Assembly (NCBI GenBank): GCA_963757055.1
Contig: CAVWPX010000008.1
Span: 144,298 to 208,297 of the forward strand
Length of the DNA stretch: 64,000 nucleotides
Direction of reading: 5' to 3'
DNA from: an uncultured Chloroflexia bacterium
Lineage (GTDB): Bacteria; Chloroflexota; Limnocylindria; Limnocylindrales; CSP1-4
The position numbers were made by a program, and so were the translations under genes. This document shows positions 42,344 through 63,719 of this stretch, one piece after another. Numbering within the stretch: the first letter of the stretch is position 1; each line of letters opens with the position of its first letter. The notes under the pieces were generated by a model. That model ran no database searches and was not told where the DNA came from. It was given only the letters and a program-made list of their open reading frames with translations.

Positions 42344-42362
42344 CGACCCCGAACCCGGGTCG

Positions 42363-43334: not shown

Positions 43335-44536
43335 GTGACCCCCATCACCCTCGACGTGGAGCCTGCCTGTCCGGCCGGCGACGATGTCGACCGCGTTCCC
43401 GATGCGGCGGCCCGTCCTCGACTTCGCGCCGAGCGGCGCCCGCTGGAGGCCTTCACGGCCACGACCTGGGACGGCCTCGCGGCCGCGAACCCGTGGGCGA
43501 CACCGTTCTCCGGCTGGGCGTTCCAGCGCGCGTGGTGGGACGGCTACGGCGCCAACGCCCATGACGAGACGCTCGCCCTGGTCGACGCCGACGCGCCGGC
43601 CGACGGCAGCGCGTCGCCGGTCGCGATCGTGCCGCTCATGCACCGGCACGAGGTCGAGTCGGACGACGCCGACACCCGGACGCGCCTCCGCGGCGACACC
43701 GACACCGACCTGACGGCCGTGGCCCCCGACGCCACGGCGATCTTCTTCGGCGCCTCGTACCACGCCGACTACGCGACGATCCTCGCGGCACCGGCGGACC
43801 TGCCGGACGCGGCGGCGGCCGTCGTCGCGTACCTCGCCGACGCCGACGCCCCGGCCTGGGACGTCGTCGACCTCCGCCGCCTCCGCTGCGGCGACCCGAC
43901 GGCCGACGCGCTCGGCGCGGCGTTCGGTGCCCGGGAGATCCGCGAGGGCTGGACGCTCAACGTCGAGCGCGAGGACGTGTGCCCGGTCGTGACGCTGCCG
44001 GACGGCATCGACCTCGACGGCTACCTCGCGACGCTCGGCAAGAAGGAGCGCCACGAGATCCGGCGCAAGGTCCGCCGGGCCGAGGCGGTCGGCGAGGTCC
44101 GCCTCGACGACTCGGCCGATCCCGTCGGCGACCTCGAGGCGTTCATCGACCTCCACCAGCGGCGCTGGGGCGCGGCCGGCCTCTTCCCGCCGACCGCCGG
44201 CGGGGACCAGAGCCGGGTCTTCATCCGCCGGCTGTTCGAGCTGTCCGGCACCGACGGCCCGGTCCGCCTCACGTTCCTCACGGTCGGCGGCCGGCGGATC
44301 GCGGCGGGGATCCACCTCGAGACCCCCGACGGCTATCTCTACTACAACGCCGGCGTGGACCCCGACGCCCGCGAGCTCTCGCCCGGCGTCGTGATGGTCC
44401 ATGCCTACGTCCAGCGGGCGATCGCGGAGGGCAAGCGCCGGCTCGACTTCCTCCGCGGCGACGAGCCGTACAAGTACGAGTGGGGCGCGTCGACGAGCCG
44501 ATCCAGCGGCTGCTCGTGCGCCGGCGAGCCGGCTGA
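43335..44536 (+). CDS. CelD/BioF2-like GNAT-fold acyltransferase. The frame is interrupted near 44485-44495.
   Basis: ...WDGLAAANPWATPFSGWAFQRAWWDGYG...GKKERHEIRRKVRRAE...YLYYNAGVDPDARELSPGVVMVHAYVQRAIAEGKRRLDFLRGDEPYKYEWGA continues as VDEPIQRLLVRRRAG* in the shifted frame. The GTG 43335 start is tentative. Confidence 0.68.
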
Positions 44537-45739
44537 TGGGCGCCCCGATGCCGTTCGAGCCCTGCTTCGAGCCGGTGATCCGCCAGCCGGTGACCGGCGG
44601 CCGCGTCCGCGTCGTCGAGCTGCTCGCGACCGGCTCGAACGGCGGCGCCCAGGAGCACCTGTTCTCGCTGGTCACGCGGATCGACCGCGCCCGCTACGAC
44701 GTCTCGGTCGTCGCGCTCTCGGCGGGGAGCGCCGTCCGCAAGCTCGAGCGGGCCGGGATCCCGGTCCTGGTGATCGACGAGGTCGACGACGCGATCGCGG
44801 TCGGCGCGCTGGCGACGCACCTGTCGGAGGTCCGCGCGGACGTCCTCCACACCCACATGTACCGCGCCGACACGGTCGGCACCCGCGCGGTCATGGCCCT
44901 CGGCGAGATCGGCCACCGCCGCCCGTACATCGTCTCGACCGTCCACTCGAGCCGCGTCCGCTCGAGCGAGGACCAGGCGCTGCTCGCGGCGCTGACGCCG
45001 CACATGGACCGGCTCATCGCGGTCTCCCGCTCGATCGAGCGCAAGCTCCACCAGGAGGGCCGGGACGTGATCCCGGTGGACCTGATCTACAACGGCGTCG
45101 ACCTCCAGCGCTACGACCACCAGGAGCCGTGCTGCACGCTGCCCGACGAGTACGGCATGGAGCCCGGCTCGCAGATCGTCGGCGTCGTCGCCCGGCTCGA
45201 GCCGGAGAAGGGCCACCCGACCCTCTTCGACGCGTGGCCGATCGTGCTCCGCGCGGTCCCGGACTCCGTACCTGCTCGTCGTCGGCGAGGGCAGCCGCCG
45301 GGATGCGCTCGAGGCGCAGGCCCGCGAGCTGCGGATCGCCCACCGCGTGGTCTTCACCGGCCGGCGCGACGACGTCCCGGCCGTCACCGCCGCGCTCGAC
45401 GTGGCCGTGCTCCCGTCCTACCGCGAGGCGCAGGGCCTGACGATCCTCGAGGCGATGGCGCTCTCGCGACCGGTCGTGGCATCCGACGTCGGCGGCATCC
45501 CCGAGATGATCCAGGACGGCAAGACCGGGCTCCTGGTCCCGCCGCACGACCCGGACGCGCTGGCCGCCGCGATCATCCGGCTGCTGACGGACCACCCGCT
45601 CGCGGACACGCTCGGGCGGGCCGGCCACGACCTGGTCCACGACCGGTTCTGCATCGAGCTGATGGTCCGCGCCATCGAGGGCATCTACGACGAGGGCGCC
45701 AAGGTCGTGCGCCCGTCCGAGGTGGCCGCGGCCGGCTAG
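44536..45739 (+). CDS. GT4-family glycosyltransferase. The frame is interrupted near 45262-45268.
   Basis: VRVVELLATGSNGGAQEHLFSL...HTHMYRAD... continues as YLLVVGEGSRRDALEAQARELRIAHRVVFTGRRDDV...SYREAQGLTILEAMALSRPVVASDVGGIPEMIQDGKTGLLVPP (EX7E-type motif). The ATG overlaps the upstream TGA. Confidence 0.85.
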
Positions 45740-45788
45740 GACCTTCGTGCCGGTGCGACGGCGCACCGGGGGCACGTAGCATCCGCCG

Positions 45789-47222
45789 GTGAGCCTGAAT
45801 CGCCTGTGGGTCTTCCTGGCCGTCGCCCTGCCCGTCCTGGCGTCGGTCATCGCGAACCTCTCGTCGGTCGACCTGACGTACCACCTCCGCGCCGGCGACG
45901 AGATCCTCTCGAGCGGCGCGATCCCGCGGGTGGACACGTGGACCTACACCGCGGCCGGCGTGCCCTGGGTCGACCAGCAATGGGGCGCCCAGGTCGTGCT
46001 CGAGGCGGCCTACCGGTTCGCCGGCTGGACCGGGCTGGTCCTGCTGCGCGGGCTCCTCGTCGGCATCATCTTCGGGTCGGTCTTCGCCATCGCCCGGTGG
46101 CGCGGGCTGAGCGAGCGGACGTCGGCCCTGCTGACGCTCGCCGCGTTCGCCGTGTCGGCGGTCGCCCTCGCGATGCGCCCGCAGCTCATCGGGATGGCGA
46201 TCTTCGCGGTCGTGCTCCTGCTGGTCGTCGACCGGCGCGCCCACCCGCGCCGGCTGTGGCTCGTCCCGGTCATCGTCGCGATCTGGGCCAACATGCACGG
46301 CAGCTTCTTCCTCGGGCCCGTCCTCCTGGGCCTCGCCTGGCTCGAGGACGTGCACGACCACGACCCGGGCGCTCGCCGGGTCCTGGCGCTGGCGGCGATC
46401 AGCGCCGCCGCGGCCTGCATCAATCCCTTCGGCCCGGCCGTGTGGGGCTACGCCATCGGCCTGTCCACGAACCCGCTCGTCACCCAGCGCATCTCGGAGT
46501 GGGCGCCGACGACGTTGCGGACGATCCCGGGCATCCTCTTCTTCGCGAGCGCCGCGGCCATCGTCGTCCTGATCGCCCGGCGCGGGGACCGCACCGCCTG
46601 GCCGACGCTCGCGTGGCTCGGGGTCTTCTTCGTCATCGGCGCCTTCGCGATCCGGGGCGTCGCCTGGTGGCCGCTCGCCGCGGTCGCGGCCATCGCCGGC
46701 ACGCTCGTGGTCGACCGGCCGCGGACCGCCGAAGCCCGCCCCGACCCGCCGCTCATCCGGCGCGCCAACCTGGCCATCGCCGTGATCCTCGTCGTCGTCG
46801 GCATCGCGCTGCTCCCCGTCTGGCGACCCATCGAGCCCGGTCTGCAGGCGCCCGTCGGGGTCGTCGGGAACGCGCCGCCGGGGATCACCGACGCGCTGCG
46901 CACCAGGGCCGTCCCGGGCGACCGGCTGTTCGCGCCGCAGCCGTGGGGCTCGTGGTTCGAGTTCAGCCTGCCGGCGCTCCCCATCGGGATCGACTCCCGG
47001 ATCGAGCTCTTCCCGGTCAGCGTGTGGGACGACTACGAGCTGGTCGTCTCGGGTGCCGACGGCTGGCAGGAGCGGCTGCGGACCTGGGGCGTGACGCTGG
47101 CGGTCGTCGCCGGCGACGACCAGGCGGCGTTCGGGGACCGCCTCCGGGCGGCCGGCTGGCGGCCGGTCTACCACGATGACGACGGCACCCTCCTCACCGC
47201 GCCGGACCGTCCGGGCGCCTGA
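45789..47222 (+). CDS. Polytopic membrane protein with a periplasmic C-terminal domain. Possibly GT-C-like, family unassigned.
   Basis: An intact 477-aa ORF with a GTG start. It reads ...SSVDLTYHLRAGDEILSSGAIPRVDTWTYTAAGVPWVDQQWGAQVVL...WANMHGSFFLGP... and has about 11 TM helices followed by a soluble tail. Confidence 0.5.
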   Translation: MSLNRLWVFLAVALPVLASVIANLSSVDLTYHLRAGDEILSSGAIPRVDTWTYTAAGVPWVDQQWGAQVVLEAAYRFAGWTGLVLLRGLLVGIIFGSVFAIARWRGLSERTSALLTLAAFAVSAVALAMRPQLIGMAIFAVVLLLVVDRRAHPRRLWLVPVIVAIWANMHGSFFLGPVLLGLAWLEDVHDHDPGARRVLALAAISAAAACINPFGPAVWGYAIGLSTNPLVTQRISEWAPTTLRTIPGILFFASAAAIVVLIARRGDRTAWPTLAWLGVFFVIGAFAIRGVAWWPLAAVAAIAGTLVVDRPRTAEARPDPPLIRRANLAIAVILVVVGIALLPVWRPIEPGLQAPVGVVGNAPPGITDALRTRAVPGDRLFAPQPWGSWFEFSLPALPIGIDSRIELFPVSVWDDYELVVSGADGWQERLRTWGVTLAVVAGDDQAAFGDRLRAAGWRPVYHDDDGTLLTAPDRPGA

Positions 47223-47324
47223 CCGGACGCCCGCGACGACGCCGGCGGGCGAGCCCGCGGGACCGCGGTTGGTACTAGGGCGGGCCGGACCTTCGCAGCG
47301 CGGTGCCGCCGTGCACCGTGCTGC

Positions 47325-47340
47325 TAGAGTCGCCGAAATG
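47325..47340 (+). promoter_or_regulatory. Candidate -10 (TAGAGT) placed 7 nt before the dehydrogenase ATG, a geometry that suggests a leaderless transcript.
   Basis: ctgcTAGAGTcgccgaaATG, with no Shine-Dalgarno sequence between. Confidence 0.2.
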
Positions 47341-48543
47341 ACCGAACGACCCGCGGACCTGGATGTCGTCGTGCTCGGTGGCGGAGGACACGTCGGGCTG
47401 CCGCTCAGCCTGTCGTTCGCCAGCATCGGGCTGCGCGTCGGCATCTACGACACCAACCAGGCGACCCTCGACCGGATCGCCGCCGGCGAGATGCCGTTCA
47501 TGGAGACCGGTGCCGAGGCGCTGCTGCACGAGCTGCTGCCCACCGGCCGCCTGACCTTCGGCTCCGACGGCTCGATCATCGGCCGGACCGGGCAGCTGGT
47601 GGTCGTCATCGGCACGCCGGTCGACGAGTTCCTCGGCCCGTCGATGACGATCTTCGAGAAGGCCGTCGACCAGATCGCGCCGCACCTCCGCGAGGACGCG
47701 CTGGTGGTCCTGCGCAGCACGGTCTATCCGGGCACGACCTCCTACGTCGCCCAGCATCTCGCCGAGCGCGGCTGCCACGTCGACGTCGCGTTCTGCCCGG
47801 AGCGGATCGCCGAGGGCCATGCCCTCGAGGAGATCCGCTCGCTCCCCCAGATCGTCGGGGCCGACACGCCGCATGCCGGCGACCGCGCGGAGGCCCTGTT
47901 CGGGGCGCTCGCCTCCTCGATCGTCCGGACGACGTCGAAGGAAGCCGAGCTCGCCAAGCTCTTCACCAACACCTGGCGGTACATGAAGTTCGCGGTGGCG
48001 AACCAGTTCCTGATGATCGCCGACCAGGCCGGGGTGGACTACACGCACGTGCTGCGCGCCATCCGCGAGGACTATCCGCGGGCGGCGGACCTGCCGGGCC
48101 CCGGCTTCGCGGCCGGTCCCTGCCTGTTCAAGGACACGATGCAGCTGGCCGCCTTCACCTCCGACCACTTCCCGCTCGGCCAGGCCGCCATGCAGGTCAA
48201 CGAGGGCCTGCCGGCCTACATCGTGTCCGCGCTCGAGCGCCGCTACGGCCGTCTCCAGGGCACGACGGTCGGCATCCTCGGCATGGCCTTCAAGGGCGAA
48301 TCGGACGACACGCGGGCATCGCTGAGCTACAAGCTCCGCAAGCTGCTGTCGTGGTCCGGCGCGCGCGTCCTGGCCACCGATCCCTACGTCGACGACGACC
48401 GGCTCGTGTCGCTGGACTGCGTCCTGGCCGAGAGCGACGTCCTGGTCCTCGGGGCGCCGCACCGCGCCTATCGCGGCCTCGAGATCGGCGGCAAGGACGT
48501 CATCGACGTGTGGGGCCTGCTCGGCGAGGGGATCCGCCTGTGA
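47338..48543 (+). CDS. Nucleotide-sugar 6-dehydrogenase (UDP-glucose/GDP-mannose dehydrogenase family).
   Basis: The Rossmann motif is VVVLGGGGHVGLPLS. Other motifs are ...FCPERIAEG...KEAELAKLFTNTWRYMKFAVANQF...GPGFAAGPCLFKD (catalytic Cys)...GMAFKGESDDTR. Confidence 0.9.
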   Translation: MTERPADLDVVVLGGGGHVGLPLSLSFASIGLRVGIYDTNQATLDRIAAGEMPFMETGAEALLHELLPTGRLTFGSDGSIIGRTGQLVVVIGTPVDEFLGPSMTIFEKAVDQIAPHLREDALVVLRSTVYPGTTSYVAQHLAERGCHVDVAFCPERIAEGHALEEIRSLPQIVGADTPHAGDRAEALFGALASSIVRTTSKEAELAKLFTNTWRYMKFAVANQFLMIADQAGVDYTHVLRAIREDYPRAADLPGPGFAAGPCLFKDTMQLAAFTSDHFPLGQAAMQVNEGLPAYIVSALERRYGRLQGTTVGILGMAFKGESDDTRASLSYKLRKLLSWSGARVLATDPYVDDDRLVSLDCVLAESDVLVLGAPHRAYRGLEIGGKDVIDVWGLLGEGIRL

Positions 48544-49511
48544 GCGCCGACAGCGGGTCCTGGCCGGCGGCCTCGCGGCCCATCGACGGCGGATCGGCGC
48601 CGGCGCTCGTGCCGGGCTCGGCCGAGATCAGCGGCCGCCGCTGGGGCGTGCTGCTCGATGGCGGCGGGCTCGCCCTCATCTCCGGCATCGCGCTGGCGAT
48701 CGGCGTCGCCTATGCCGTCGCGAACATCGTCCCCGTCGACACCGACATGTACTGGCGCGCCGGCCTGTCCTCGCACTACTACGGCACCGTGTGGGCGGCG
48801 GACGCGAACTCCCTGTACGTCTACCCGCCGCCGCTCGCCCAGGCGATCGGCCTCCTGGCGCCCATCGGCTGGTCCGCGTTCGTCATCGGCTGGACGGTCT
48901 TCGTCTTCGCCGGGATGTGGGCGAGCACGCGCCGCTGGAGCCTGCTCGTGTTCGCCGCCACGGCGGGCGCGGCCATCCTGTGGGGCATCGACTCCGGCCC
49001 GGCCAAGCCGCTCCTCCTGGCCATGATCGGCAACGTCCAGCCGCTCCTCGCGGCGGCGGTCGTCATCGGCTTCCGCTGGCCGGCCGCCTGGGCGTTCGTG
49101 ATCCTGACCAAGATCGCCCCCGGCATCGGCATCCTGTGGTTCGCCTTCCGCCGCGAGTGGCGGAACATGGGCATCGCCCTGGCCGCCACGGCGGTCATCG
49201 CCGCGGTGTCGTTCGTGTTCGCGCCCCAGCAATGGGCCGACTTCGTCCGCTTCGCGATGGCCAACGTCGGCGCGCCGTCGCCGAACCCGGTGGTCCCGAT
49301 CTCGCTGCCGGTGCGGATCGCGATGTCGGTCGCGATGATCGCCTGGGGCGCCCGGACGAACCACCGCTGGATCGTCCCCTTCGCCGCGGGGTGGGCGTCG
49401 CTGGCCCTCTACGAATGGACCTGGCTGACGATGCTGCTGGCCGGCCTCGCCCTCGTGGACTGGCCGCCGAAGCTGCCGGGCCGGGCGACGGCGCGAACCG
49501 CGACCGCATGA
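48540..49511 (+). CDS. DUF2029/GT87-like membrane protein (closest paralogue of 34745..35561).
   Basis: ...VDTDMYWRAGLSSHYYG...LYVYPPPLAQAIGLLAPIG...FRWPAAWAFVILTKIAPGIGILWFAFRREWR.... The GTG overlaps the dehydrogenase stop (GTGA). Confidence 0.65.
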   Translation: MSADSGSWPAASRPIDGGSAPALVPGSAEISGRRWGVLLDGGGLALISGIALAIGVAYAVANIVPVDTDMYWRAGLSSHYYGTVWAADANSLYVYPPPLAQAIGLLAPIGWSAFVIGWTVFVFAGMWASTRRWSLLVFAATAGAAILWGIDSGPAKPLLLAMIGNVQPLLAAAVVIGFRWPAAWAFVILTKIAPGIGILWFAFRREWRNMGIALAATAVIAAVSFVFAPQQWADFVRFAMANVGAPSPNPVVPISLPVRIAMSVAMIAWGARTNHRWIVPFAAGWASLALYEWTWLTMLLAGLALVDWPPKLPGRATARTATA

Positions 49512-50530
49512 GGATCCTCGTCACCGGCGCGGCCGGGTTCATCAACGGCTATCTCGTCCCGGAGCTCCTCGAGGCCGGTCATGACGTGATCGGGCTCGAC
49601 GACTTCAGCAAGTACGGCCGGCTGTCCAAGTCGTACGACGAGCATCCGCGCTACCGGTTCGTCGAGGGCGACGCCAAGGACGCGGACCTCATGCGCGAGC
49701 TGGCCGCCGACTGCGACCAGGTCGTGGCCGCCGCCGCGATGATCGGCGGGATCAGCTACTTCCACGAGTTCGCCTACGACCTGCTCGCGGAGAACGAGCG
49801 GATCCTCGCCTCGACCTTCGATGCGGCGATCGCCGCGCACCGGGACGGCCACCTCGAGCGGATCATCGTGGTCTCCAGCTCGATGGTCTACGAGTCGGCG
49901 ACCGTCTTCCCGACGCCGGAGGGCGCGCAGCGGACCTCGCCGCCGCCGATCTCGACCTACGGCTTCCAGAAGCTCGCGTCCGAGTACTTCGCCCTGGGCG
50001 CGGTCGAGCAGTACGGCCTGCCCTACACGATCGTGCGCCCCTTCAACTGCGTCGGGATCGGCGAGCGCCGCGCGCTGCGGGACACCGACATCATGTCCGG
50101 CAACGTGAAGCTCGCGCTGTCCCACGTGGTCCCGGACCTCGTCCTCAAGGTCCTCAAGGGCCAGGACCCGCTCCACATCCTGGGCGACGGATCGCAGGTG
50201 CGGCACTACACGTACGGCGGCGACCTGGCCCACGGGATCCGCCTCGCGATGGAGTCGCCCGACGCGATCGGCGAGGACTACAACCTCTCGACCGCCGCCT
50301 CGACCACCGTCCTCGAGCTGGCCGAGACCATCTGGCGGAAGGTCCACGGGCCGGACCGGCCGTTCGCCACGGTCAGCGACCCGCCGTTCGAGCACGACGT
50401 CAAGCTGCGCGTCCCCGACGTGCGCAAGGCCCGCGAGCAGCTCGGCTTCGAGGCGACCACCACGCTCGACGAGATGCTCGACGAGGTGATCCCGTGGATC
50501 GCGGCGGAGACCGCGGTCGGCCGGCTCTAG
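49508..50530 (+). CDS. NAD-dependent SDR epimerase/dehydratase.
   Basis: MRILVTGAAGFINGYLVPELL...VVSSSMVYE...STYGFQKLASE (YxxxK). The ATG overlaps the upstream stop (ATGA). Confidence 0.9.
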   Translation: MRILVTGAAGFINGYLVPELLEAGHDVIGLDDFSKYGRLSKSYDEHPRYRFVEGDAKDADLMRELAADCDQVVAAAAMIGGISYFHEFAYDLLAENERILASTFDAAIAAHRDGHLERIIVVSSSMVYESATVFPTPEGAQRTSPPPISTYGFQKLASEYFALGAVEQYGLPYTIVRPFNCVGIGERRALRDTDIMSGNVKLALSHVVPDLVLKVLKGQDPLHILGDGSQVRHYTYGGDLAHGIRLAMESPDAIGEDYNLSTAASTTVLELAETIWRKVHGPDRPFATVSDPPFEHDVKLRVPDVRKAREQLGFEATTTLDEMLDEVIPWIAAETAVGRL

Positions 50531-50532
50531 AC

Positions 50533-52006
50533 GTGGGCGTCGCGGCGCCTGACGCCCCGCCGGCCGAGACCGGGCTGTCGACGGTCTTCGGCATCCGCAT
50601 CCTGGCCCGCCTCGGCCCGGCGCGGCTGACCGGCCTGTTCGGGCTCCTCTTCTGGGTGGGCGCGATGGTCTGGCTGCCGATGACGCTGCGCCCCGACCTC
50701 ATCCGGCCGGCCGACCTCGGCTCCGACACGTCCAACTACGCGGCGGCGGGGGAGCGCCTCGCGCAGGGGTCGGACCTGTACGCGCTGCAGGCCGGCGACC
50801 GGCCGGTCCCCGCCGACAATCCCCCGGAGTGGTCGGTGCCGATCCTCTCGCCGCCGGCGGTCGGGGTCCTGTGGGCGCCGCTGACGCTCCTGCCGCAGCC
50901 GTTCGAGCTGTACACGAGCTGGACGGTCGGCCTGGCCTGCACGGTCGCGCTGGGCGTGTTCCTGGTCCTCCGCCTGCGACCGCTGCTGGTCGTCGCGATC
51001 CTCGCGCCGCTGATGGTCCTCACCCTCGTCGCCTGGTCCGGGAACCTGTATGCCCTGCTCGCCCCGGCGTTCGCGCTGACCTGGTGGCTCTCGGTCCGGG
51101 AGCGGACCCGCGAGAGCGAGTGGCTGGTCGGGGCGATCATCGGCGCCGCGACGGTGCTCAAGCTGGGGCCGGCCGTGCTGCTCGTCTGGCTGCTGGCCGG
51201 GCGGCGGACCGACGCGCTCGCCAGCGCGGCCGTCACCGGGCTCGTGTCGGTGGCCGCCGCCGTCTGGCTCGGCGGCGTCGGCATCTTCCGGGAGTACCTC
51301 GACGTCGTCCTCCATTCCGCGGGCACGCCGGCCCCGCTGAGCATCCCGGGCCTGCTCGCCGGGCTGGGGCTGCCGGCGACCGTGGCCCGGCTCGGGCTGC
51401 TCGTCGTCGTGGCCCTCGGCTGCCTCGCGGTCGTGCTCCTGCGCAAGGACCCGCGCCGGTCGTTCGCGGTGGCGGTCGTCCTGAGCCTGTTCGCCACCAC
51501 GGTCGTCCGGCCGGAGACGCTCGTCGTCGCGCTCGTCGCGCTGATGCCGTGGGCGACGCACGACAACGCGCCGATCGAGCCGCTGCGCGGCGACGCCCGC
51601 TCCCCGATGCTCGCGATCTCGGCCGGGGTCGCCGCGATCGCGGTGGCCCTGTCGATCACCACGGGCGGGCTGCGGTCCTCGTCGATGACGCTGGTCAACG
51701 ACACCGCCGCGCCGGTCGTCGTCCGCTTCACCGTGCCGTCCCAGGACGCGTCGTTCGGGTTCCGGCTCCAGCCCGGCGAGGCGGGGACCGGGTGGCTCGA
51801 CCGGCTCGGGACCGTGTTCTCGCCGGTCTACGTGACCACCGCGAGCTGCGACCTCCTGTACCAGTTCGACGCGGACCCGAGCGTGACCGCCATGCGCATC
51901 GGCCCGGACGTCCGCGGTCGCCGTGGAGCAGCCGGCCGGCGCGTTCCTCGACTACGCGCCCGATTGCGCCGAGGTCGTCGCGCTGAGCGCGGCGGGCTCG
52001 AGGTAG
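50533..52006 (+). CDS. DUF2029/GT87-like membrane protein with a C-terminal extracytoplasmic domain. The frame is interrupted near 51910-51920.
   Basis: GTG start. ...LGSDTSNYAAAGERLAQGSDLYAL...VPILSPPAVGVLWAPLTLLP...VLKLGPAVLLVWLLAGRR... is followed by the tail ...VAVEQPAGAFLDYAPDCAEVVALSAAGSR* in the shifted frame (TAG 52004-52006). Confidence 0.6.
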
Positions 52007-52066
52007 CCGGGTGCACCCGTACCTTCAGCGGGTTGTCCGCTGGCACCGGCATGCAAGACTGCGCAA

Positions 52067-52804
52067 GTGACCGAGATCCCGCACGCCCCGAACGAACCGA
52101 TCGTCGCCGTGATCATCCCGGCGCTGAACGAGGCCGGCAAGATCGGCCGCGTCCTCGACAAGCTGCCCGCCGACGGGCGCTTCGAGGCGATCGTCGTCGA
52201 TGACGGCTCGACCGACCGGACCGGCGACGAGGCGCGCGAGCACGGCGCGGCGGTGGTCGTCCGGCACGAGCAGCGCGGCGGGGTCGGCGCGGCCATCCGC
52301 GACGGCTGGCGCGTCGGGGTCGCCCGCGAGCGGCCGTACCTCGCCCTGCTGTCCGGCGACGACCAGCACGAGCCGGCCGAGCTGGTCGCCGCGCTGGACG
52401 CGCTCCTGGCCGCCGAGGCCGACTATCTCCAGGGCTCGCGCTGGATGCCGGGCGGCCAGGTCTTCGGCGCCATCGGCGGCCGGGCCCGCGGCACGCGGCT
52501 CTATTCGATGGCGTTCAGCGTCCTCGTCGGCCGGCGCGTGACCGACGCGACCAACGGCTTCCGGATCTTCCGCAGCGAGCTCCTGTCCGATCCGAAGATC
52601 GAGCTCGACCAGCGCTGGCTCGACAGCTACGACCTCGAGCCCTACGTCCTGTACCGGGCGATCACCCGCGGGTACCGGGTCATCGAGTTCCCGGTGACCG
52701 TGCGCTACCACCGCAACGAGAGCTATACGAAGATGCGCGGCATGAAGGACTGGTGGCGGCTGTTCCGCCCGGCCCTGCTGCTGCGGACCGGGGTCAAGCG
52801 ATGA
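52067..52804 (+). CDS. GT2 polyprenyl-phosphate sugar synthase-like glycosyltransferase.
   Basis: GTG start. VAVIIPALNEAGKIG...AIVVDDGSTDRT...LLSGDDQHEP...TNGFRIF.... Confidence 0.85.
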   Translation: MTEIPHAPNEPIVAVIIPALNEAGKIGRVLDKLPADGRFEAIVVDDGSTDRTGDEAREHGAAVVVRHEQRGGVGAAIRDGWRVGVARERPYLALLSGDDQHEPAELVAALDALLAAEADYLQGSRWMPGGQVFGAIGGRARGTRLYSMAFSVLVGRRVTDATNGFRIFRSELLSDPKIELDQRWLDSYDLEPYVLYRAITRGYRVIEFPVTVRYHRNESYTKMRGMKDWWRLFRPALLLRTGVKR

Positions 52805-53790
52805 GCGCGGTGGCGCTCGAGCGCTCCTTCGGCGCGCGCCGGATCCTCGTCACGGGCGGCGCCGGCTTCGTCGGCTCGGCGGTGACCCGGCGGCTGGTGG
52901 ACGCCGGCGCCCGCGTCACCGTCCTCGACGACCTCTTCACCGGCAAGGCCGACGAGCTGCCGACGGGCGCGGAGTTCGTCCGCGGGTCCGTCACCGACGC
53001 GCCGCTCGTCAACGAGCTCGTCGCCGAGCACGGCCTGATCTTCCACCTCGCCGCGCGGAACATCATCGCGTCGACCGCCAACCCGCTCGACGACTACGCC
53101 ACGAACATCGGCGGCACGCTGAACATCCTCCTGGCGGCGCGCGAGTCCAAGGTCGACCGCATCGTCTACTCGTCGTCGGCGTCCGTGTACGGCAACCCGC
53201 GCTCGATCCCGATCAACGAGGACGACGGGCTGTGGACGCTGTCGCCCTACGCGGTCAGCAAGCTCGGCGGCGAGAACTACTGCACGGCCTTCGCCGAGAG
53301 CTACGGCCTGCGGGTCGCGACGGTCCGCTTCTCGAACGTCTACGGCCCGCACCAGCGGCCGGACAACCCCTACAGCGGCGTCGTCTCGAAGTTCCTCGTC
53401 GAGGCCCACGCGGGCCGGCCGATCACGATCCACGGCGACGGCGAGCAGACGCGCGACTACACCTTCATCGACGACGCCGTCGACGCGACCCTCCTCGCGG
53501 CCATCCACCCGCGCGCCGAGGGCGAGGTCTTCAACGTCGGCACCGGGATCGAGACGTCGGTGAACCGGCTCGCCGCCTCGATCGGGACGGCGCTCGGCAC
53601 CGAGATCGACGTCCAGCACGTCGACCGACGCGACATCGACAACATCCGGCGCCGGGTCGTCAACATCGAGAAGATCCGCCGGATGCTGCGCTGGACGCCG
53701 CAGTACACCCTCGAGCGCGGCCTCGAGCAGACCGTCGAGTGGTACCTGGGCTCGTCCTTCGCGTCCGAGCCCGTCGCCAGCGCCCGATGA
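52801..53790 (+). CDS. NAD-dependent SDR epimerase/dehydratase (UDP-sugar 4-epimerase / decarboxylase-like).
   Basis: RILVTGGAGFVGSAVTRRLV...YSSSASVYG...SPYAVSKLGGE (YxxxK). ATGA overlap with the preceding GT2. Confidence 0.9.
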   Translation: MSAVALERSFGARRILVTGGAGFVGSAVTRRLVDAGARVTVLDDLFTGKADELPTGAEFVRGSVTDAPLVNELVAEHGLIFHLAARNIIASTANPLDDYATNIGGTLNILLAARESKVDRIVYSSSASVYGNPRSIPINEDDGLWTLSPYAVSKLGGENYCTAFAESYGLRVATVRFSNVYGPHQRPDNPYSGVVSKFLVEAHAGRPITIHGDGEQTRDYTFIDDAVDATLLAAIHPRAEGEVFNVGTGIETSVNRLAASIGTALGTEIDVQHVDRRDIDNIRRRVVNIEKIRRMLRWTPQYTLERGLEQTVEWYLGSSFASEPVASAR

Positions 53791-54530
53791 CCGACGGGCC
53801 GACGCTCGCCATCGTCCTGCCCGTCTACAACGAGGGTCCGGCGGTCGAGCCCGTCCTGCGCGCCCTGACGGCCGGCGTCCGGACGCCGCACGAGCTCATC
53901 GTCGTGTACGACTTCGACGAGGACACGACCGTCCCGGTGATCGCCCGGCTCGAAGGCGAGCTGCCTGGCCTCCGCGGTGTCCGCAACGACCTCGGGCGAG
54001 GCGTGCTCAACGCCATGAAGGCGGGCATCGCGGCGACGACCGCGCCGTACGTCCTGATCTCCATGGCCGACGGGTCCGACGAGCCGCAGGTGGTCGACCC
54101 GATGGTGGCCCTGGCGGTCGGCGGGGCGGACGTCGTCTCGGCGTCGCGGTACATGCGCGGCGGGCGACAGGTCGGCGGGCCGCTGCTGAAGCGGACCCTG
54201 AGCCGGGCCGCGGGCCTGAGCCTGCACTGGTTCGGCGGCGTGGCGACGCACGACCCCACCAACAACTTCAAGCTCTACGCGAGGCGCTTCCTCGATTCGG
54301 TCACGATCGAGAGCACGGCCGGCTTCGAGCTCGCGCTCGAGCTGACCGTCAAGGCGACGCTCTCCGGACGCACGGTCGCCGAGGTGCCCACGACCTGGCG
54401 CGACCGGACCGCCGGGACGAGCAACTTCAAGCTCCGCAAGTGGCTGCCGCACTACCTGCACTGGTACTGGACGGCCTTCCGCGGCCGCTTCGCCGGCTGG
54501 CGACGCGACGGGCATGGCATCGTCGGCTAG
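53787..54530 (+). CDS. GT2 polyprenyl-phosphate sugar synthase-like glycosyltransferase.
   Basis: LAIVLPVYNEGPAV...LIVVYDFDEDTT...ISMADGSDEP...TNNFKLY.... ATGA overlap with the epimerase. Confidence 0.85.
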   Translation: MTDGPTLAIVLPVYNEGPAVEPVLRALTAGVRTPHELIVVYDFDEDTTVPVIARLEGELPGLRGVRNDLGRGVLNAMKAGIAATTAPYVLISMADGSDEPQVVDPMVALAVGGADVVSASRYMRGGRQVGGPLLKRTLSRAAGLSLHWFGGVATHDPTNNFKLYARRFLDSVTIESTAGFELALELTVKATLSGRTVAEVPTTWRDRTAGTSNFKLRKWLPHYLHWYWTAFRGRFAGWRRDGHGIVG

Positions 54531-55299
54531 CCCCACCGACATCGCGAGCCTCGGGGTCGAGACCGGTCGATCCGGCCCGCTCGTGGCCGCCGGGCGGATC
54601 GTGGCGATGGTGCTCATCGGCCTCGGCTGGCTCTGGATCGCGCTGGCGATCTTCTGGAGCCTGTCGAGCCCGTCGTTCGGGCTGGACTACCGCTGGCACG
54701 TCGAGGCGGCCCAGCGCCTGCTCGACACCGGAACGCCGTACCTGCCCTTCGAGCTGAGCGGGCCGTTCGTCATCGGCGATGGCGCGATCCTCTACCCGCC
54801 GACCGCGTTCCTCCTGTTCATCCCGTTCATCTGGCTCCCCGCCGTGCTGTGGTGGGCGATCCCGATCGCCGTCACCGCGTATGGCATCTGGTGGCACCGG
54901 CCGCCGCTGTGGGCGTGGGTGGTCATCACGGGCCTGTTCGCGCTCGAGAAGTCCATCAACGTCTACGTCTTCGGCAACCCGTCGATGTGGATCGTCGCGG
55001 CGATCGCGGCCGGCAGCGTCTGGCGCTGGCCGTTCGTCTTCGTGCTTGCCAAGCCGACCTTCGCGCCCATCGCGCTGCTCGGCGCCCGGCGACGCAGCTG
55101 GTGGATCGCGCTTGGCGTGCTCGCTGTGGCCTCCATCCCGTTCCTCCCGGTCTGGCTCGACTGGCTGACCGTCGTCCGCAACTCCGACGTCTCGCTGCTG
55201 TACAACCTCCCGACGCTCCCGCTCATGCTGGCGCCGCTCGTGGCGTGGGCGACGGGCCGAGATCGACCCGCATGGCTGCCGGGTCGCCTGCCGAGGTGA
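54514..55299 (+). CDS. Small polytopic membrane protein, DUF2029/GT87-like (tandem paralogue 1).
   Basis: ...FGLDYRWHVEAAQRLLDTGTPYLP...ILYPPTAFLLFIPF...FGNPSMW...LAKPTFAPIALLGARRRSWW...GRDR. Confidence 0.55.
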   Translation: MASSASPTDIASLGVETGRSGPLVAAGRIVAMVLIGLGWLWIALAIFWSLSSPSFGLDYRWHVEAAQRLLDTGTPYLPFELSGPFVIGDGAILYPPTAFLLFIPFIWLPAVLWWAIPIAVTAYGIWWHRPPLWAWVVITGLFALEKSINVYVFGNPSMWIVAAIAAGSVWRWPFVFVLAKPTFAPIALLGARRRSWWIALGVLAVASIPFLPVWLDWLTVVRNSDVSLLYNLPTLPLMLAPLVAWATGRDRPAWLPGRLPR

Positions 55300-56075
55300 T
55301 CGCGACGAAGCGCTGGCCCGACCGGGCCGGTCTTCGTCGTTGGTCGCCGGTCCGGATCCTGCTCGTGCTTGCGACCGGCCTCCTCGTGGCCGAGGTCGTC
55401 ATCTCCTTCACGCTCGTCCGCGACGCCGGGGAGCTCTGGATCGACTACACGTTCTACCGGCAGATCGGCGTCCGCTGGCTCGCCGACGGGACCTACTACC
55501 TGCCCCATCAGCTGACCGGCGTGCCGTACGGCCTCGTGCCCATGCAGGACGTCCTCTACCCGCCGACGGCGCTGTTCCTGTTCGTGCCGCTCACGGTCGT
55601 GCCCGCGGTCGTGTGGTGGATCGTGCCGGTCGGCGTGCTGGCCGCCACGACGTGGCTGTGGCGTCCCAGGCCGCTGGCCCTGCTCGCCATGCTCCTGCTG
55701 CTCATGTGGCCGCGCGCGGAGTCGGCCTTCATCTTCGGCAACTCGGACATGTGGATGGCCGCTGCGGTCGCCGCGGGCCTGCGCTGGGGCTGGCCCGCGC
55801 TCCTGCTGGTCGTCAAGCCCATCTTCCTGCCCCTCGCCGCCCTGGGCGCGGATCGGATCTCGTGGTGGGTCGGCGCCGGCCTGATCGTGGTCGTGAGCCT
55901 CGCCATGCTGCCGCTGTGGTCGCAGTACATCGTCGCGATCCGCAGCCTGCGAATCGGCCTCGACTACTCGATCGGCAGCCTGCCGCTGCTCCTCGTGCCG
56001 ATCATGGGCTGGCTGGGACGGGACCGGACGCGGGACCCGAGAGCCCGTCATGCGGAGCCGTCCCCGACTGCGTGA
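55272..56075 (+). CDS. Small polytopic membrane protein, DUF2029/GT87-like (tandem paralogue 2).
   Basis: ...LWIDYTFYRQIGVRWLADGTYYLP...VLYPPTALFLFVPL...FGNSDMW...VVKPIFLPLAALGADRISWW...GRDR. The start (ATG 55272 or GTG 55296) is uncertain. Confidence 0.55.
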   Translation: MAAGSPAEVIATKRWPDRAGLRRWSPVRILLVLATGLLVAEVVISFTLVRDAGELWIDYTFYRQIGVRWLADGTYYLPHQLTGVPYGLVPMQDVLYPPTALFLFVPLTVVPAVVWWIVPVGVLAATTWLWRPRPLALLAMLLLLMWPRAESAFIFGNSDMWMAAAVAAGLRWGWPALLLVVKPIFLPLAALGADRISWWVGAGLIVVVSLAMLPLWSQYIVAIRSLRIGLDYSIGSLPLLLVPIMGWLGRDRTRDPRARHAEPSPTA

Positions 56076-57286
56076 GCCGCACCGTCACGACGGTGAGGAC
56101 CAGGATCGCGACCGAGCCGGCCACGCCGAGCCAGCCGTCGACGGGGAGGAGCGCGCCGATCTCCGGCGTCGGGGGCACCGCCGCGAGCAGGTTCAGCGTG
56201 AAGACGATGCCGAAGGCGAGCCCCAGCCAGCGCACGCGCGCCTCGGGGATCAGCAGCATGAAGAAGACGAGCGCGCCGTACGCATAGCGCTCGTGCATCG
56301 AGGTCAGGAAGCAGAAGGCGACCAGCGTCGCCGCCGCGAGACCGAGCACCAGCGTCCGCGGTCGCGGGTCGCGCAGGATCGCGAGCGCGACGACGATCTC
56401 CAGGATGCCCGTCACGAGGAACCCGACATGCCGGAGCGTGATCGGCCCGAGGAACGCCTGGTCGTCGGCGATGAAGCCGCCGCCGGCGAACAGCGACTGC
56501 ACCAGCCACCACAGGTTCCAGGCCCGGAGCGACAGGATGTTGAAGATGTCGCCCTGGTACTCGGCCAGGTTGTGGAGGTAGTTCGCCGGTCCGCCCGCCG
56601 GGATGAACGGCAGCCAGAGCACGACGATCACGGCCAGGCCGATCAGCCCGGCCCGCACCAGGCCGCGCCACCCGCCGGTCGCCCAGAACCAGGCCGCGAA
56701 CGGGCAGCAGGAACGGCAGGACCTGCGGCTTGGTCATGAGCGCGACCGCGAGCAGCGCGGCGGCGGCGCCGTTGCGACCGTGGACGGCGCACAGCACCGC
56801 GGCCAGCGCGGACAGCATGTAGATCGACTCGTACTGGCCCCACCAGGCGCTGATGTCGATGACGGCGGGGTGCAGCAGGATGGCGGCCGCACCGATCGCC
56901 GCCCACCACGGCCGGTCGCGCAGGGCGAAGGCCACGAGCGCCGCCAGGCCGAGGTCGGCCAGCGACGCCGGTGTCTTCATCAGGGCCCGGATCGCCGGGT
57001 CCGACGAATCCGTCACCGTCTTGAAGGCTGGCTCGATCGCCGCGAGGACGCCCCAGACGTAGGCCATGACCGGCGGGAACGAGAGGTTCTGGTCGTAGGC
57101 GTGGGGCAGGCCGTTCACGGCGATGCCGTGCGTCCAGAGGACGAAGACGTCGAGGTCCCCGGTCAGCCCGGGCGTGGGCAGCAGCAGCGCCCGGATGACG
57201 ATGCCGGCGACGAGGGCGGCGATGCCCACCACGATCGCGGCGACCGGCCGAGCCGCGGGGTCCGCCTCGAGCCGGCGGTCGCTCAC
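56002..57286 (-). CDS. GT-C membrane mannosyltransferase-like protein (Gpi18/PIG-V-like, COG5542-type). The frame is interrupted near 56660-56700.
   Basis: VSDRRLE...LTGDLDVFVLWTHGIAVNGLPHAYDQNLSFPPVMAYVWG...LADLGLAALV...MTKPQVLPFLLP continues as ...IPAGGPANYLHNLAEYQGDIFNILSLRAWNLWW...LTSMHERYAYGALVFF... (ORF 56002..56658). Confidence 0.6.
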
Positions 57287-57287
57287 G

Positions 57288-58361
57288 TCAGACGCGGCCG
57301 GAGATCCAGTACCGTTCCGCCGATCCGTCGACCTCGCCGTACTCGGCGATCGTCCGTGCGTACGCCCGCACGGCATCGGCCATCGCCCGCGTGCCGTCGA
57401 AGAGCCGCTCGATCTGGCTGGCGTACAGGTCGATGCCCATGATCTTGCGCTCGAGCTGGTCGGTGATGTCCGCGAAGGTCGGCGACATCGAGACGCCCGC
57501 CGGGAACGCGTCGAGGATGTCCGCGCCCAGGTCCTGCGGTCCCTTGAAGTCGGACCAGAAGGCGTACGGGAAGTCCTCGTAGAACGTCACGATGCCTGCG
57601 TAGTCGGGCCCCGGCATGACCCAGCGGTAGCCCTCCTGGAGCAGGCGCAGGCCGACGTCGCGGCAGAGCTGGTGGTCGACGTGCCCGCCGACGCCGAGCG
57701 GGAAGTACACCTTCTGCGGCTCGAGCCGGGCGATCTCGCGGCGGAGCAGCTCGTACGGGGCGGTGTCGTCGGGCCGCGGCGCGCCGAGGAGCTGGTCGTC
57801 GCCCTCGTAGCCGCGGAAGACCGCGTCCGGGAGGTCGAGGAACACGATCGACGCCTCGGCGAAGTAGGCGAACCGCTCGTCCTCGATCCGGCGCCGGGCC
57901 ATCAGGTCGCCGGCCGCCGCCGCGTCCATGACGTCGTCGGTGTAGATCGCGCCCTGTGTCGGCACGTCGTCGATGACCGGCTGCTCCGCGAGCGACTCGT
58001 TGCGGACGCTGGCGCGGCGGTACCACGACGACCGCTGCCAGAACCGCTTGGCGGCGGCATCGGCGTCGGCCTGGGTGGCCTCGAGGCGGTCCTCGGTCGC
58101 CGCCCACGACGGGACGAGGGCGGCGGTCGGCCAGTCGGCCTGGATGTCGCTGCGGTTGAACGCCTCGGTCACCGGCCACATCGCCTTCGACCCGAAGCCG
58201 AGCGCCTCGCGCTGGTAGGTCGTCAGGTCGTCGCTGGCGCCGTCGCCGGAGAACACCGTGATGACGGTCACGTTCTGACCGAGCTCGCGGAGGCTGGCGA
58301 TCAGACCGCCGCAGGAGAGGGCGACGTCGTCCGGGTGCGGCGCGACGAAGACGTGGGTCAT
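57288..58361 (-). CDS. PIG-L/LmbE-family N-acetylglucosaminyl deacetylase with a long insertion.
   Basis: MTHVFVAPHPDDVALSCGGLIASL...(PDD motif)...GVGGHVDHQLC (HxDH). The ORF is 357 aa and intact. Confidence 0.82.
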   Translation of the reverse strand: MTHVFVAPHPDDVALSCGGLIASLRELGQNVTVITVFSGDGASDDLTTYQREALGFGSKAMWPVTEAFNRSDIQADWPTAALVPSWAATEDRLEATQADADAAAKRFWQRSSWYRRASVRNESLAEQPVIDDVPTQGAIYTDDVMDAAAAGDLMARRRIEDERFAYFAEASIVFLDLPDAVFRGYEGDDQLLGAPRPDDTAPYELLRREIARLEPQKVYFPLGVGGHVDHQLCRDVGLRLLQEGYRWVMPGPDYAGIVTFYEDFPYAFWSDFKGPQDLGADILDAFPAGVSMSPTFADITDQLERKIMGIDLYASQIERLFDGTRAMADAVRAYARTIAEYGEVDGSAERYWISGRV

Positions 58362-58416: not shown

Positions 58417-59094
58417 TCACCCCGCGTAGCCGCCTTCGCCGACGAGCGGCACGAACACGCAGGCGCCGTCGGGCACGTCGGTCCACTCGTTCCCGTGCCG
58501 GGTCACCACGGTCAGCATCTGGCGGTCACGCGGCCCGACCGGGATGACCAGGCGAGCGCCGTCGGCCAGCTGGTCGCGCAGGGTCGTCGGGACGACGGGC
58601 GCGGCCGCGGCGACCAGGATCCCGTCCCACGGGGCGCCATCGGGCCAGCCGAGGCTGCCATCGGCCACCACGACCTCGACCGCGTCGCCGTAGCCGAGTC
58701 CCTCGAGCCGCGCCCTGGCCGACGCGGCGAGGTCCGCGTGTCGCTCGATGGTCGTCACGCGGCAGCCGAGGGCCGCGAGGATCGCGGCCTGGTAGCCGGA
58801 GCCGGTGCCGATCTCGAGGACGCGGTCCCCGGGCCGCGTGGCCAGCAGCTCGGTCATGCGGGCGACCATGAACGGCTGGCTGATCGTCTGGCCGAGCTCG
58901 ATCGGGAGGGCCTCGTCGTCGTAGGCGCGCCGCGGGTCGGCGACGTCGACGAACCGCTCGCGTGGCACCTCGCCCATCACCCTCAGGACCCGCTCGTCAC
59001 GGATGCCGCGGCGGCGCAGCTGGTCGGCCACCATCCGCTCACGAGCGCGCCGGATGCGGTCCTCGGTCTTCGCGTCGGCCTGCTGGCCGTCCAT
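58417..59094 (-). CDS. pcm: Protein-L-isoaspartate O-methyltransferase.
   Basis: ...RERFVDVADPRRAYDDEALPIELGQTISQPFMVARMTELL...VLEIGTGSGYQAAILAAL...LVIPVG.... ATG 59094 was chosen within the longer ORF 58417..59844. Confidence 0.92.
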   Translation of the reverse strand: MDGQQADAKTEDRIRRARERMVADQLRRRGIRDERVLRVMGEVPRERFVDVADPRRAYDDEALPIELGQTISQPFMVARMTELLATRPGDRVLEIGTGSGYQAAILAALGCRVTTIERHADLAASARARLEGLGYGDAVEVVVADGSLGWPDGAPWDGILVAAAAPVVPTTLRDQLADGARLVIPVGPRDRQMLTVVTRHGNEWTDVPDGACVFVPLVGEGGYAG

Positions 59095-59123
59095 GCCGCG
59101 AGGATACGCTCGCGGCGCGCCGC

Positions 59124-63687: not shown

Positions 63688-63719
63688 GGAACACGAAAAC
63701 CGACCAGCTAGTGGTCGGT
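63688..63719 (-). terminator. Rho-independent terminator on the minus strand (for the BTAD gene or an intervening transcript).
   Basis: accgacca pairs with tggtcggt (63699-63719) across a 5-nt loop, followed on the minus strand by TTTCGTGTT. Confidence 0.45.

Follow-up and report, generated by a model that had tools for sequence, protein, structure and literature searches.

What does a bacterium build with a locus in which a family 4 glycosyltransferase (GT4), a PIG-L/LmbE-family de-N-acetylase and a GNAT-type transferase are encoded amid GT2 glycosyltransferases and membrane glycosyltransferases of the GT-C type? This question is raised by a 64-kb stretch of DNA (the window, in whose numbering all coordinates are given) from a high-GC contig (G+C about 72%) of Limnocylindria (Chloroflexota), a lineage that is abundant in soils and lakes and has no cultured, biochemically studied member. 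A first-pass annotation of these genes had proposed a glycolipid-anchor pathway modelled on eukaryotic glycosylphosphatidylinositol (GPI) anchors and mycobacterial phosphatidylinositol mannosides (PIM) and lipomannan (LM). Comparison with related loci indicates that the conserved unit is the trio formed by PIG-L, the GNAT and the GT4, and that the GT2 and GT-C genes are accessory and exchangeable. We tentatively read the locus as a Limnocylindria-specific cell-envelope glycoconjugate pathway with a fixed core and exchangeable modules, a reading that stays somewhat short of probable and against which several alternatives have to be weighed.

The conserved trio

Reading frames were called from third-position GC and then compared with Pfam, NCBIfam and the PDB. 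The PIG-L gene (57288..58361, - strand) is intact and encodes 357 residues scoring 59.6 bits against PF02585 (cut-off 28.2 bits), with invariant metal and base motifs HPDD and HxDH; its assignment in the first pass is hence confirmed. The same holds for the CelD-like GNAT (43335..44536, + strand), a tandem-GNAT transferase that matches Acetyltransf_6 with 106 bits and whose C-terminus is broken by a one-nucleotide (1-nt) deletion near 44487. It also holds for the GT4 (44536..45739, + strand), whose N- and C-domains match Pfam with 59.6 and 104 bits, each in a different frame, and which becomes whole, with 400 residues, once an extra base at 45268 is removed. The 1-nt indels in the GNAT, the GT4 and the GT-C next to PIG-L had been overlooked. 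The ATG of the GT4 overlaps the stop codon of the GNAT (TGATG), the two genes being translationally coupled.

The proteins of the window were mapped by tblastn onto 82 related loci and gene distances were then measured; about 85 loci were compared in all, including relatives with a short form of PIG-L. The best 80 genome loci by PIG-L profile all come from Limnocylindria, many of them nanopore metagenome-assembled genomes (MAGs) of the MFD series and some of them Ca. Limnocylindrus, and the close homologues of the window PIG-L and GNAT belong to MAGs labelled Chloroflexota or Candidatus Limnocylindrales. In these approximately 85 Limnocylindria-type loci, PIG-L faces the GNAT–GT4 pair even where both flanks have changed (the convergent arrangement spans 54–97% PIG-L identity), and the genes thus do occur together outside the genome in which they were first noticed. 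The distance from PIG-L to GNAT–GT4 ranges from 23 bp to 9.9 kb in relatives and amounts to 11.5 kb in the window. When at least 9 kb of right flank is available (55 loci), the GT4 lies within 10 kb of PIG-L in 34 loci, and 17 of the 21 loci without a visible GT4 have a flank full of GT-C/GT2 cassette genes. In lineages with a short-form PIG-L (about 50% identity), a protein-L-isoaspartate O-methyltransferase (PCMT) gene and PIG-L face GT4, GNAT, GT87 and GT2, and two PMT_2-like genes and a two-component system come next. In Ca. Limnocylindrus, both flanks differ and the trio is still adjacent, with a gap of 79–174 bp, one flank carrying an MMPL transporter and a CrtC-like protein and the other a phosphoribosyltransferase, AP_endonuc_2, a flippase-like protein, PHP, MreB and MurA. 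The block from AP_endonuc_2 through MurA, found at 8.5–16.3 kb in the window, abuts the trio in Ca. Limnocylindrus (13415–19514 in locus L068), so that the window's stretch of about 27 kb of pilus, regulator and GT-C genes seems to be missing there. As the trio is kept and the cassettes vary between loci, it is the trio that constitutes the conserved unit. It was not found outside the Limnocylindria-type lineage in a metagenome scan of a distant PIG-L subfamily, where a GNAT neighbor was present in none of 80 loci and a GT4 neighbor in 6 of 80; three distant PIG-L representatives looked up for their context lay on contigs of only 1–3 kb, which told us nothing useful.

Such a pattern could also arise with no single pathway behind it, through class-wide conservation of gene order combined with an accumulation of glycan genes at one variable site. 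PCMT, the HD_5 gene, the histidine kinase with its response regulator and the MurA–MreB block are just as syntenic as the trio; PIG-L and GT4–GNAT are on opposite strands and, in locus L084, are separated by a sigma factor and two other genes; and the rarity of GNAT and GT4 neighbors in the distant PIG-L subfamily points in the same direction. However, the trio stays adjacent where both flanks are remodelled, GNAT and GT4 are coupled at the translational level and the three activities would form a coherent chemical sequence with several precedents. We therefore regard the absence of any common pathway as improbable.

Regarding PIG-L, its closest solved relatives, by sequence (E 3e-6) as well as by fold (E 5e-13, TM-score up to 0.77 on the target, 18–21% identity), are the teicoplanin/A40926 pseudoaglycone deacetylases Orf2*/Dbv21, followed by TT1542, BC1534, BshB and chitobiose deacetylases, with MshB weaker. 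Its best NCBIfam match, BshB1, reaches 33.7 bits for a cut-off of 182.5 and covers N-terminal residues only, and the enzyme is thus not a BshB/MshB equivalog. It carries an insertion of about 100 residues (residues ~45–150), which contains a conserved 'ADADAAAKRFWQRSSWY' stretch, is modelled by AlphaFold with a confidence (pLDDT) below 50 and is lacking in the 270–310-residue homologues of sister lineages. The GT4 is best matched in NCBIfam by the PEP-CTERM exopolysaccharide GT4 TIGR03088 (180 bits), then by BshA (129.6 of 273.7 bits) and MshA (98.3 of 462.5 bits), all below their cut-offs, so that it is an equivalog of neither thiol enzyme; nor is it one of GpgS (71.9 of 480 bits). Its PDB matches include BshA (104 bits, the best), MshA (79), PimA (75) and PimB' (69). 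The first-pass annotation had named a grouping of PIG-L with thiol- or antibiotic-pathway deacetylases, or of the GT4 with polysaccharide enzymes, as evidence against a GPI/PIM pathway, and it is indeed with Orf2*/Dbv21 and BshB, and with TIGR03088 and BshA, that the nearest relationships lie, at scores far below the cut-offs. PIG-L would accordingly be a deacetylase of the GPI-pathway class at family level only, its nearest relatives not being GPI enzymes.

The GNAT, for its part, is predicted to adopt a FemABX-type tandem GNAT fold. Foldseek places FemX first (E 2e-7), then Sbb17/Sba18 with the amino sugar streptothrisamine, FemA and MprF, further fold matches being ATE1 and L/F-transferase, all of them aminoacyl-tRNA-dependent transferases; an aminoacyl-tRNA is hence the most likely acyl donor according to the model. 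The idea that this GNAT stands in for PIG-W or PatA is not supported, its predicted fold being of the FemX/Sba18 type and not of the GWT1 or LPLAT type. No PIG-W/GWT1-type inositol acyltransferase and no PatA-type (LPLAT) domain was found in the locus, whose sole acyl-type transferase is this soluble Acetyltransf_6 tandem GNAT.

Taken as a pathway, these three enzymes would act in sequence. At the cytoplasmic face of the membrane, the GT4 would put an N-acetylhexosamine, most likely N-acetylglucosamine (GlcNAc) from UDP-GlcNAc, on an acceptor X, for which a membrane lipid, a polyprenyl-linked glycan or another molecule are candidates. The zinc-dependent PIG-L would then strip the acetyl group and free the amine (GlcNAc-X to glucosamine-X, GlcN-X), which the FemX-like GNAT would re-acylate, most likely with an amino acid from an aminoacyl-tRNA, to give an N-aminoacyl-GlcN-X, which the exchangeable modules may then decorate outside the membrane. 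Precedents for such an install, deacetylate and re-acylate logic can be seen in mycothiol, bacillithiol, teicoplanin and GPI biosynthesis and, as regards its first two steps on a lipid, in the GlcN-phosphatidylglycerol made by gpgSDF (PMC12713373). Moreover, the nearest PIG-L folds, Orf2*/Dbv21, deacetylate GlcNAc ahead of N-acylation, which counts in favor of a core of this kind.

Glycosyltransferase cassettes and gene strings

The locus extends from about 28.2 to 63.8 kb, far past the 43–58 kb region originally considered. As noticed in the first pass, its genes lie on opposite strands: the tightly packed genes of the + strand occupy 36790–56075, and 56002 marks the GT-C end of the - strand string. 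The latter comprises, in order, a cyclic di-GMP (c-di-GMP)-II riboswitch, HD_5, a DUF5317–MFS fusion, PCMT, PIG-L and a GT-C. Across related genomes, the left flank formed by HD_5, MFS, PCMT and PIG-L is nearly invariant (82 loci), and in most genomes, including the window and loci L083/L085, GNAT–GT4 terminate a same-strand run opened by a GT2 and a GT87.

Two types of cassettes can be distinguished between the fixed genes. Cassette A, present in some genomes, combines the ALG6-like GT-C with, on the opposite strand, GT2b, an epimerase, a nucleotide-sugar dehydrogenase and a 477-residue membrane protein, while cassette B, present in others, contains an epimerase, GT2a and a GT87. In the window, GT2a (52067..52804, + strand; PF00535, 69.4 bits) and GT2b (53787..54530, + strand; PF00535, 56.7 bits) flank an NAD-dependent sugar-nucleotide epimerase/dehydratase (52801..53790, + strand), which overlaps each of them by ATGA, and the two small membrane genes that follow are likewise joined by an overlap of the ATGA or GTGA type. 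The first-pass description of these GT2s as dolichyl-phosphate (Dol-P)- or polyprenyl-phosphate-sugar-synthase-like proved sound: the best solved relative of both is the Pyrococcus Dol-P-mannose synthase (5mlz; E 1e-7 for GT2a and 4e-14 for GT2b, the latter followed by ArnC and GtrB), and their best NCBIfam matches are AglJ, a Dol-P-hexose transferase and PpgS, none of which reaches its equivalog cut-off. Their GT-A catalytic domain is closest to the DPM1/ArnC/GtrB/PpgS subgroup. Upstream lie a nucleotide-sugar 6-dehydrogenase (47338..48543, + strand; TIGR03026, 269 vs 189.8 bits), whose best equivalogs are UDP-N-acetylmannosamine (UDP-ManNAc) dehydrogenases, and a second NAD-dependent sugar-nucleotide epimerase/dehydratase (49508..50530, + strand). 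Together, the dehydrogenase and the epimerases suggest uronic or N-acetylated sugars rather than mannose.

Regarding the GT-Cs, two GT87-family proteins are encoded close by (48351..49511, + strand, PF09594, 28.6 bits; 50494..52203, + strand, 61.1 bits, with a D-x3-Y loop motif). Six proteins of the window exceed the Pfam GT87 threshold, four of them beyond the region first considered, and the D-x3-Y loop motif is kept; in PimE, the residues D58 and Y62 are catalytic (PMC12041525). The GT87 family membership proposed in the first pass is thus secure and the PimE label is not, as the PimE equivalog model gives 20.8 bits for a cut-off of 413. Directly after PIG-L comes a further GT-C (56002..57286, - strand; 427 residues once a base near 56703 is removed), whose GTG start lies 1 nt past the PIG-L stop. 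It had been called Gpi18/PIG-V-like, an assignment that can be ruled out, with no PIG-V/Mannosyl_trans2 match at E ≤ 10; it is by score ALG6/GT87-like (Alg6_Alg8 29.7 bits, GT87 25.1 bits). Among the GPI mannosyltransferase families PIG-M (GT50), PIG-V (GT76) and PIG-B/Z (GT22) no counterpart was found, the corrected protein matching only Alg6_Alg8 and GT87 at E ≤ 10. Its sole PDB sequence match, in a profile search, is a weak one to yeast ALG6 (E 0.34), and its loop aspartates D44 and D46 are invariant. The GT-Cs thus retain, in their first loop, the acidic residues that catalysis would be expected to require.

Several other membrane proteins belong to this stretch. Two paralogous polytopic proteins of about 255 residues (54514–55299 and 55296–56075, + strand) have a weak similarity to GT87 (only 8–16 bits), with loop motifs LDYRWH and IDYTFY and an 'LYPP' motif resembling the GT87 catalytic loop; they are 35–37% identical to the same relatives and are perhaps GT-C enzymes in a minimal form with seven helices, or else a new family. 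The 477-residue protein (45789..47222, + strand), a regular member of cassette A with at least nine transmembrane helices and a C-terminal soluble domain, has no family in Pfam, NCBIfam or profile-versus-PDB searches and is possibly a GT-C as well. Putative GT-Cs are unusually dense between 28199 and 57286, where six GT87, one ALG6/GT87-like and two PMT_2-like proteins are joined by as many as four unclassified polytopic candidates. Three polyprenyl-phosphate-sugar-type GT2s stand amid these GT-Cs, all within about 30 kb.

The GT2 and GT-C modules are typical polyprenyl-phosphate-sugar machinery. Each cassette would consist of a sugar-nucleotide tailoring enzyme, a Dol-P-mannose-synthase-like GT2 and at least one GT-C, the GT2 loading a sugar on polyprenyl phosphate and the GT-C (GT87, ALG6-like or PMT_2-like) transferring it outside the membrane, with a content that would vary between species, as is usual for surface-glycan loci. 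The GT2–GT-C pairing is shared with ArnC–ArnT, GtrA/B/V, PpgS–Rv3779 and PgfS–PgfM. Here, each cassette includes a tailoring enzyme; in contrast to those systems, no GtrA-family small flippase was found among the cluster proteins scanned, and the GT-Cs are GT87, ALG6-like or unclassified, at least nine of them in 30 kb. The cassettes are variable and none lies beside the trio in Ca. Limnocylindrus; GT-C glycosylation is therefore not obligatory in the conserved pathway. It follows that, of the order inferred in the first pass, the succession of GT4, deacetylase and acylation fits the co-occurrence of the trio, and the closing GT-C step does not stand as an obligatory part.

The proximity of PIG-L to these modules also permits a different division of labor, in which a GT2 would make a polyprenyl-phosphate-linked N-acetylhexosamine, PIG-L would deacetylate it and a GT-C would transfer the free-amine sugar to an envelope polymer, as with NaxD in Francisella and LgmC in Bordetella, GT4 and GNAT being a separate matter. 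A logic of this type, linking GT2, deacetylase and GT-C, is established for the modification of lipid A with galactosamine or glucosamine. It would account for the single nucleotide between PIG-L and the ALG6-like GT-C, a pair found in 29 of the 55 loci along with convergent GT2, epimerase and dehydrogenase genes, and for the similarity of the dehydrogenase to UDP-ManNAc dehydrogenases, which points to N-acetylated substrates. However, PIG-L is retained with intact motifs and 54–58% identity in genomes without an adjoining GT-C or GT2, and its conserved role therefore cannot depend on the cassette. To our knowledge, known carrier deacetylases belong to other families, namely YdjC and CE4. A carrier-lipid role for PIG-L is hence, in our view, very unlikely.

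The PIG-L string is headed by the c-di-GMP-II riboswitch, whose aptamer (63709..63791, - strand; Rfam RF01786, 63.5 bits for a gathering threshold of 53.5) overlaps a terminator-like hairpin (63720–63698) found in a terminator scan. Of 14 related loci scanned, 10 (L001, L002, L005, L007, L009, L011, L013, L015, L024 and L040) carry it at the corresponding place, about 5.2–5.6 kb upstream of PIG-L; the scan did not pick it up in L029 or in L060, L063 and L083, which are more distant. Two relatives have GGDEF/EAL genes in its place. This position at the head of the string suggests a control shared with surface and biofilm traits.

Candidate products of the trio

If the trio is a pathway, is its product a component of the envelope or a soluble metabolite? 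Four features of the locus favor a membrane or surface product: GNAT–GT4 close a run opened by a GT2 and a GT87, a GT-C directly adjoins PIG-L, the riboswitch heads the PIG-L string in the window and in most of the relatives scanned, and GGDEF/EAL genes replace it in two others. The same features speak against a thiol or another soluble aminoacyl-glucosaminide, which GT4 and PIG-L would prepare from a small acceptor and to which the FemX-like enzyme, in place of MshC/BshC, would add cysteine or another amino acid from tRNA, the GT2/GT-C island being unrelated. This alternative nevertheless draws on several observations, as BshA is the best solved relative of the GT4, ahead of MshA and PimA, and its second NCBIfam match, BshB1 is the best NCBIfam match of PIG-L and BshB is among its fold matches. 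In addition, the trio alone persists in the streamlined Ca. Limnocylindrus, as a housekeeping function would, Sba18/Sbb17 already provide an example of a FemX-like enzyme with an amino sugar as its substrate and an MFS exporter is part of the PIG-L string. Against it, the BshA, BshB and MshA scores all remain far under the equivalog cut-offs. The genes of thiol pathways are, moreover, usually scattered over the genome. We thus consider a soluble product somewhat unlikely.

The comparison with the thiol pathways is instructive in itself. Mycothiol (MshA/B/C/D) and bacillithiol (BshA/B/C) are alike in relying on a GT4 that installs GlcNAc, a PIG-L/LmbE zinc deacetylase and the addition of an amino acid to the amine; they differ in that ligation is carried out by the cysteine ligases MshC or BshC, neither of which was found in the locus, where a FemX-like tandem GNAT is present, and in that the present genes sit in a GT2/GT-C surface-glycan locus with a c-di-GMP riboswitch. 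FemX/FemA and Sba18/Sbb17 share the tandem-GNAT fold predicted for our enzyme, and Sba18/Sbb17 attach an amino acid to an amino-sugar amine, the very step proposed here; identity is, however, only 8–14%, and the enzyme belongs to Pfam Acetyltransf_6 (CelD/BcsL-type), not to FemAB. In the teicoplanin and A40926 pathways, deacetylation of GlcNAc by Orf2*/Dbv21 likewise readies the sugar for N-acylation, although by an acyl-CoA acyltransferase and within secondary-metabolite clusters, whereas the PIG-L studied here is a class-wide core gene with an insertion of about 100 residues.

A literal GPI/PIM pathway, in which GlcNAc would be put on phosphatidylinositol or a similar lipid, de-N-acetylated, fatty-acylated and mannosylated by GT-Cs into a lipoglycan anchor, would explain why GT4, PIG-L, an acyl-type transferase, Dol-P-mannose-synthase-like GT2s and GT87s co-occur and are conserved. 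Phosphatidylinositol has been reported from cultured Chloroflexota. PimA and PimB' are among the PDB matches of the GT4. Likewise, bacterial pathways that direct a GT4 and a deacetylase to lipids do exist (PMC12713373). Such a pathway is in our opinion quite improbable, given that the GNAT is FemX-like and not PIG-W/PatA-like, that the GT-C is not PIG-V-like and the GT87s do not score as PimE orthologues, and that no inositol-phosphate synthase, phosphatidylinositol synthase, ethanolamine-phosphate transferase or transamidase was found among the annotated genes of the 64-kb window. Furthermore, a deacetylase is not part of the PIM pathway, the GT-C cassettes vary and are missing beside the trio in Ca. 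Limnocylindrus, and the dehydrogenase and epimerases nearby point to uronic or N-acetylated sugars and not to mannose. GPI (PIG-A, PIG-L, PIG-W, PIG-M/V/B) and PIM/LM (PimA, PatA, Ppm1, PimE) biosynthesis resemble the locus in outline, through a GT4, a polyprenyl-phosphate-sugar synthase and GT-Cs including GT87, the PIG-L-family deacetylase being common with GPI only. They differ from it in their GWT1/PIG-W or PatA acyltransferases and PIG-V/M/B GT-Cs, which the locus does not have, and in that its own GT-C genes are species-variable. The GPI/PIM filing of the first-pass annotation is thereby reduced to a loose chemical logic, and the locus has no direct bearing on the origin of eukaryotic GPI anchors, the likeness being at the level of broad enzyme superfamilies.

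A further comparison is with the systems in which a GT4, a deacetylase and a flippase make aminoglycolipids, namely gpgSDF (GlcN-phosphatidylglycerol, Pseudomonas aeruginosa) and hexSDF (Clostridioides difficile), which share with the locus a cytoplasmic GT4 (there producing a GlcNAc-lipid), a deacetylase (converting it to the GlcN-lipid) and a nearby membrane transporter (PMC12713373). They differ in that GpgD is a COG3233 deacetylase and not a PIG-L, and in having no FemX-like third step and no GT-C modules. We take what is new here to be a variant of known glucosamine-installing and polyprenyl-phosphate-sugar/GT-C systems, whose product we infer from the enzymes. One may go further and imagine an undescribed glucosamine conjugate in which a tRNA-dependent FemX-like enzyme attaches an amino acid to the amine, in one of two forms: a GPI-like aminoacyl-GlcN-lipid that GT2/GT-C cassettes would extend into a species-variable lipoglycan under c-di-GMP control, or a new low-molecular-weight thiol made with a Cys-tRNA-dependent transferase in place of MshC/BshC. 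Even taken together, these two forms are a rather long shot.

Several points weigh against the cell-envelope glycoconjugate pathway that we favor. The family scores of the GT4 and PIG-L are all far under equivalog cut-offs, too low to define substrates; the GNAT has no NCBIfam family and no PDB sequence match, and its model is moderately confident (pLDDT 74.6, TM-scores of about 0.4–0.5). Nor did the locus reveal a priming phosphoglycosyltransferase, a Wzx/ABC exporter or a GtrA-type flippase. PIG-L and GNAT–GT4 are convergent and hence not co-transcribed, and in Ca. Limnocylindrus neither a GT2 nor a GT-C was seen beside the trio in the flanks scanned, so that the link between core and modules is not obligatory. 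Unrelated neighbors such as PCMT, HD_5 and the two-component system show the same degree of synteny, and the association may therefore be due in part to collinearity alone. Finally, literature searches covering the glycans of Limnocylindria, N-acyl-glucosamine lipids and bacillithiol in Chloroflexi, and clusters of LmbE with FemAB gave nothing useful, and no experimental work on any Limnocylindria was found.

The trio being conserved class-wide, it offers an expressible three-enzyme target whose study may lead to either a novel bacterial glycolipid anchor or a novel redox thiol. Moreover, the locus is a clear case of surface-glycan diversification via the exchange of cassettes between fixed flanks, with an unusual stack of GT-Cs that possibly includes seven-helix "mini" versions.

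Neighboring genes and sequence quality

Across the window, reading frames are broken by a single base roughly every 3 kb (notably at 44487, 45268, ~56703, ~30134, ~32220, 38550–38800 and 40013–43263). We ruled out a pseudogene cluster: these are single-base indels whose sites differ among near-identical relatives, themselves broken at other positions than the window, and the essential atpA gene (ATP synthase alpha subunit, 4238–5804) is also broken, near 5030–5080. The breaks are therefore best taken as indel errors of long-read assembly and not as gene decay, and annotation of this contig from open reading frames will consequently fragment genes.

Among the syntenic genes upstream of PIG-L on the - strand, PCMT (58417..59100; PF01135, 195 bits) is probably unrelated to the pathway. 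It is preceded by the DUF5317–MFS fusion transporter (59937..61934; DUF5317 84.5 bits, MFS_1 60.9 bits), whose NCBIfam matches are H+ antiporter, Mef and LplT-like families, and by the HD_5 (HD-GYP-type) protein (62038..63445; PF13487, 130.6 bits), which has a membrane N-terminus and a broken frame, its gene start being read from the sequence; its relatives count 315–452 residues.

The + strand arm upstream of the GNAT comprises a GT2 (36790–37731), a GT87 (37677 to about 38800), an LA_3751-like putative glycosyltransferase of 403 residues (38832–40016), a frame-broken gene for an MFS-like/spermidine-synthase-like fusion (40013–42343) and a frame-broken GT87 (42363–43263). In locus L063, a pair of genes related to this fusion comes straight after PIG-L. 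A divergent arm (28199..36983, - strand) contains a histidine kinase (28238–28888), two frame-broken PMT_2-like GT-Cs (29353–30985 and 31000–32569) and GT87 proteins (33529–34638 and 34923–36983).

Further out, a LuxR-type two-component system (26170–28888) adjoins a Tad/Flp-type pilus locus (17128–24692, - strand) that encodes RcpC/CpaB, a response-regulator-ATPase, a CpaF-like T2SSE ATPase and two TadB/C-like T2SSF proteins. The stretch 1731–16306 of the window is occupied by an ATP synthase operon, MurA, MreB, PHP, a flippase-like LPG_synthase_TM protein and AP_endonuc_2.

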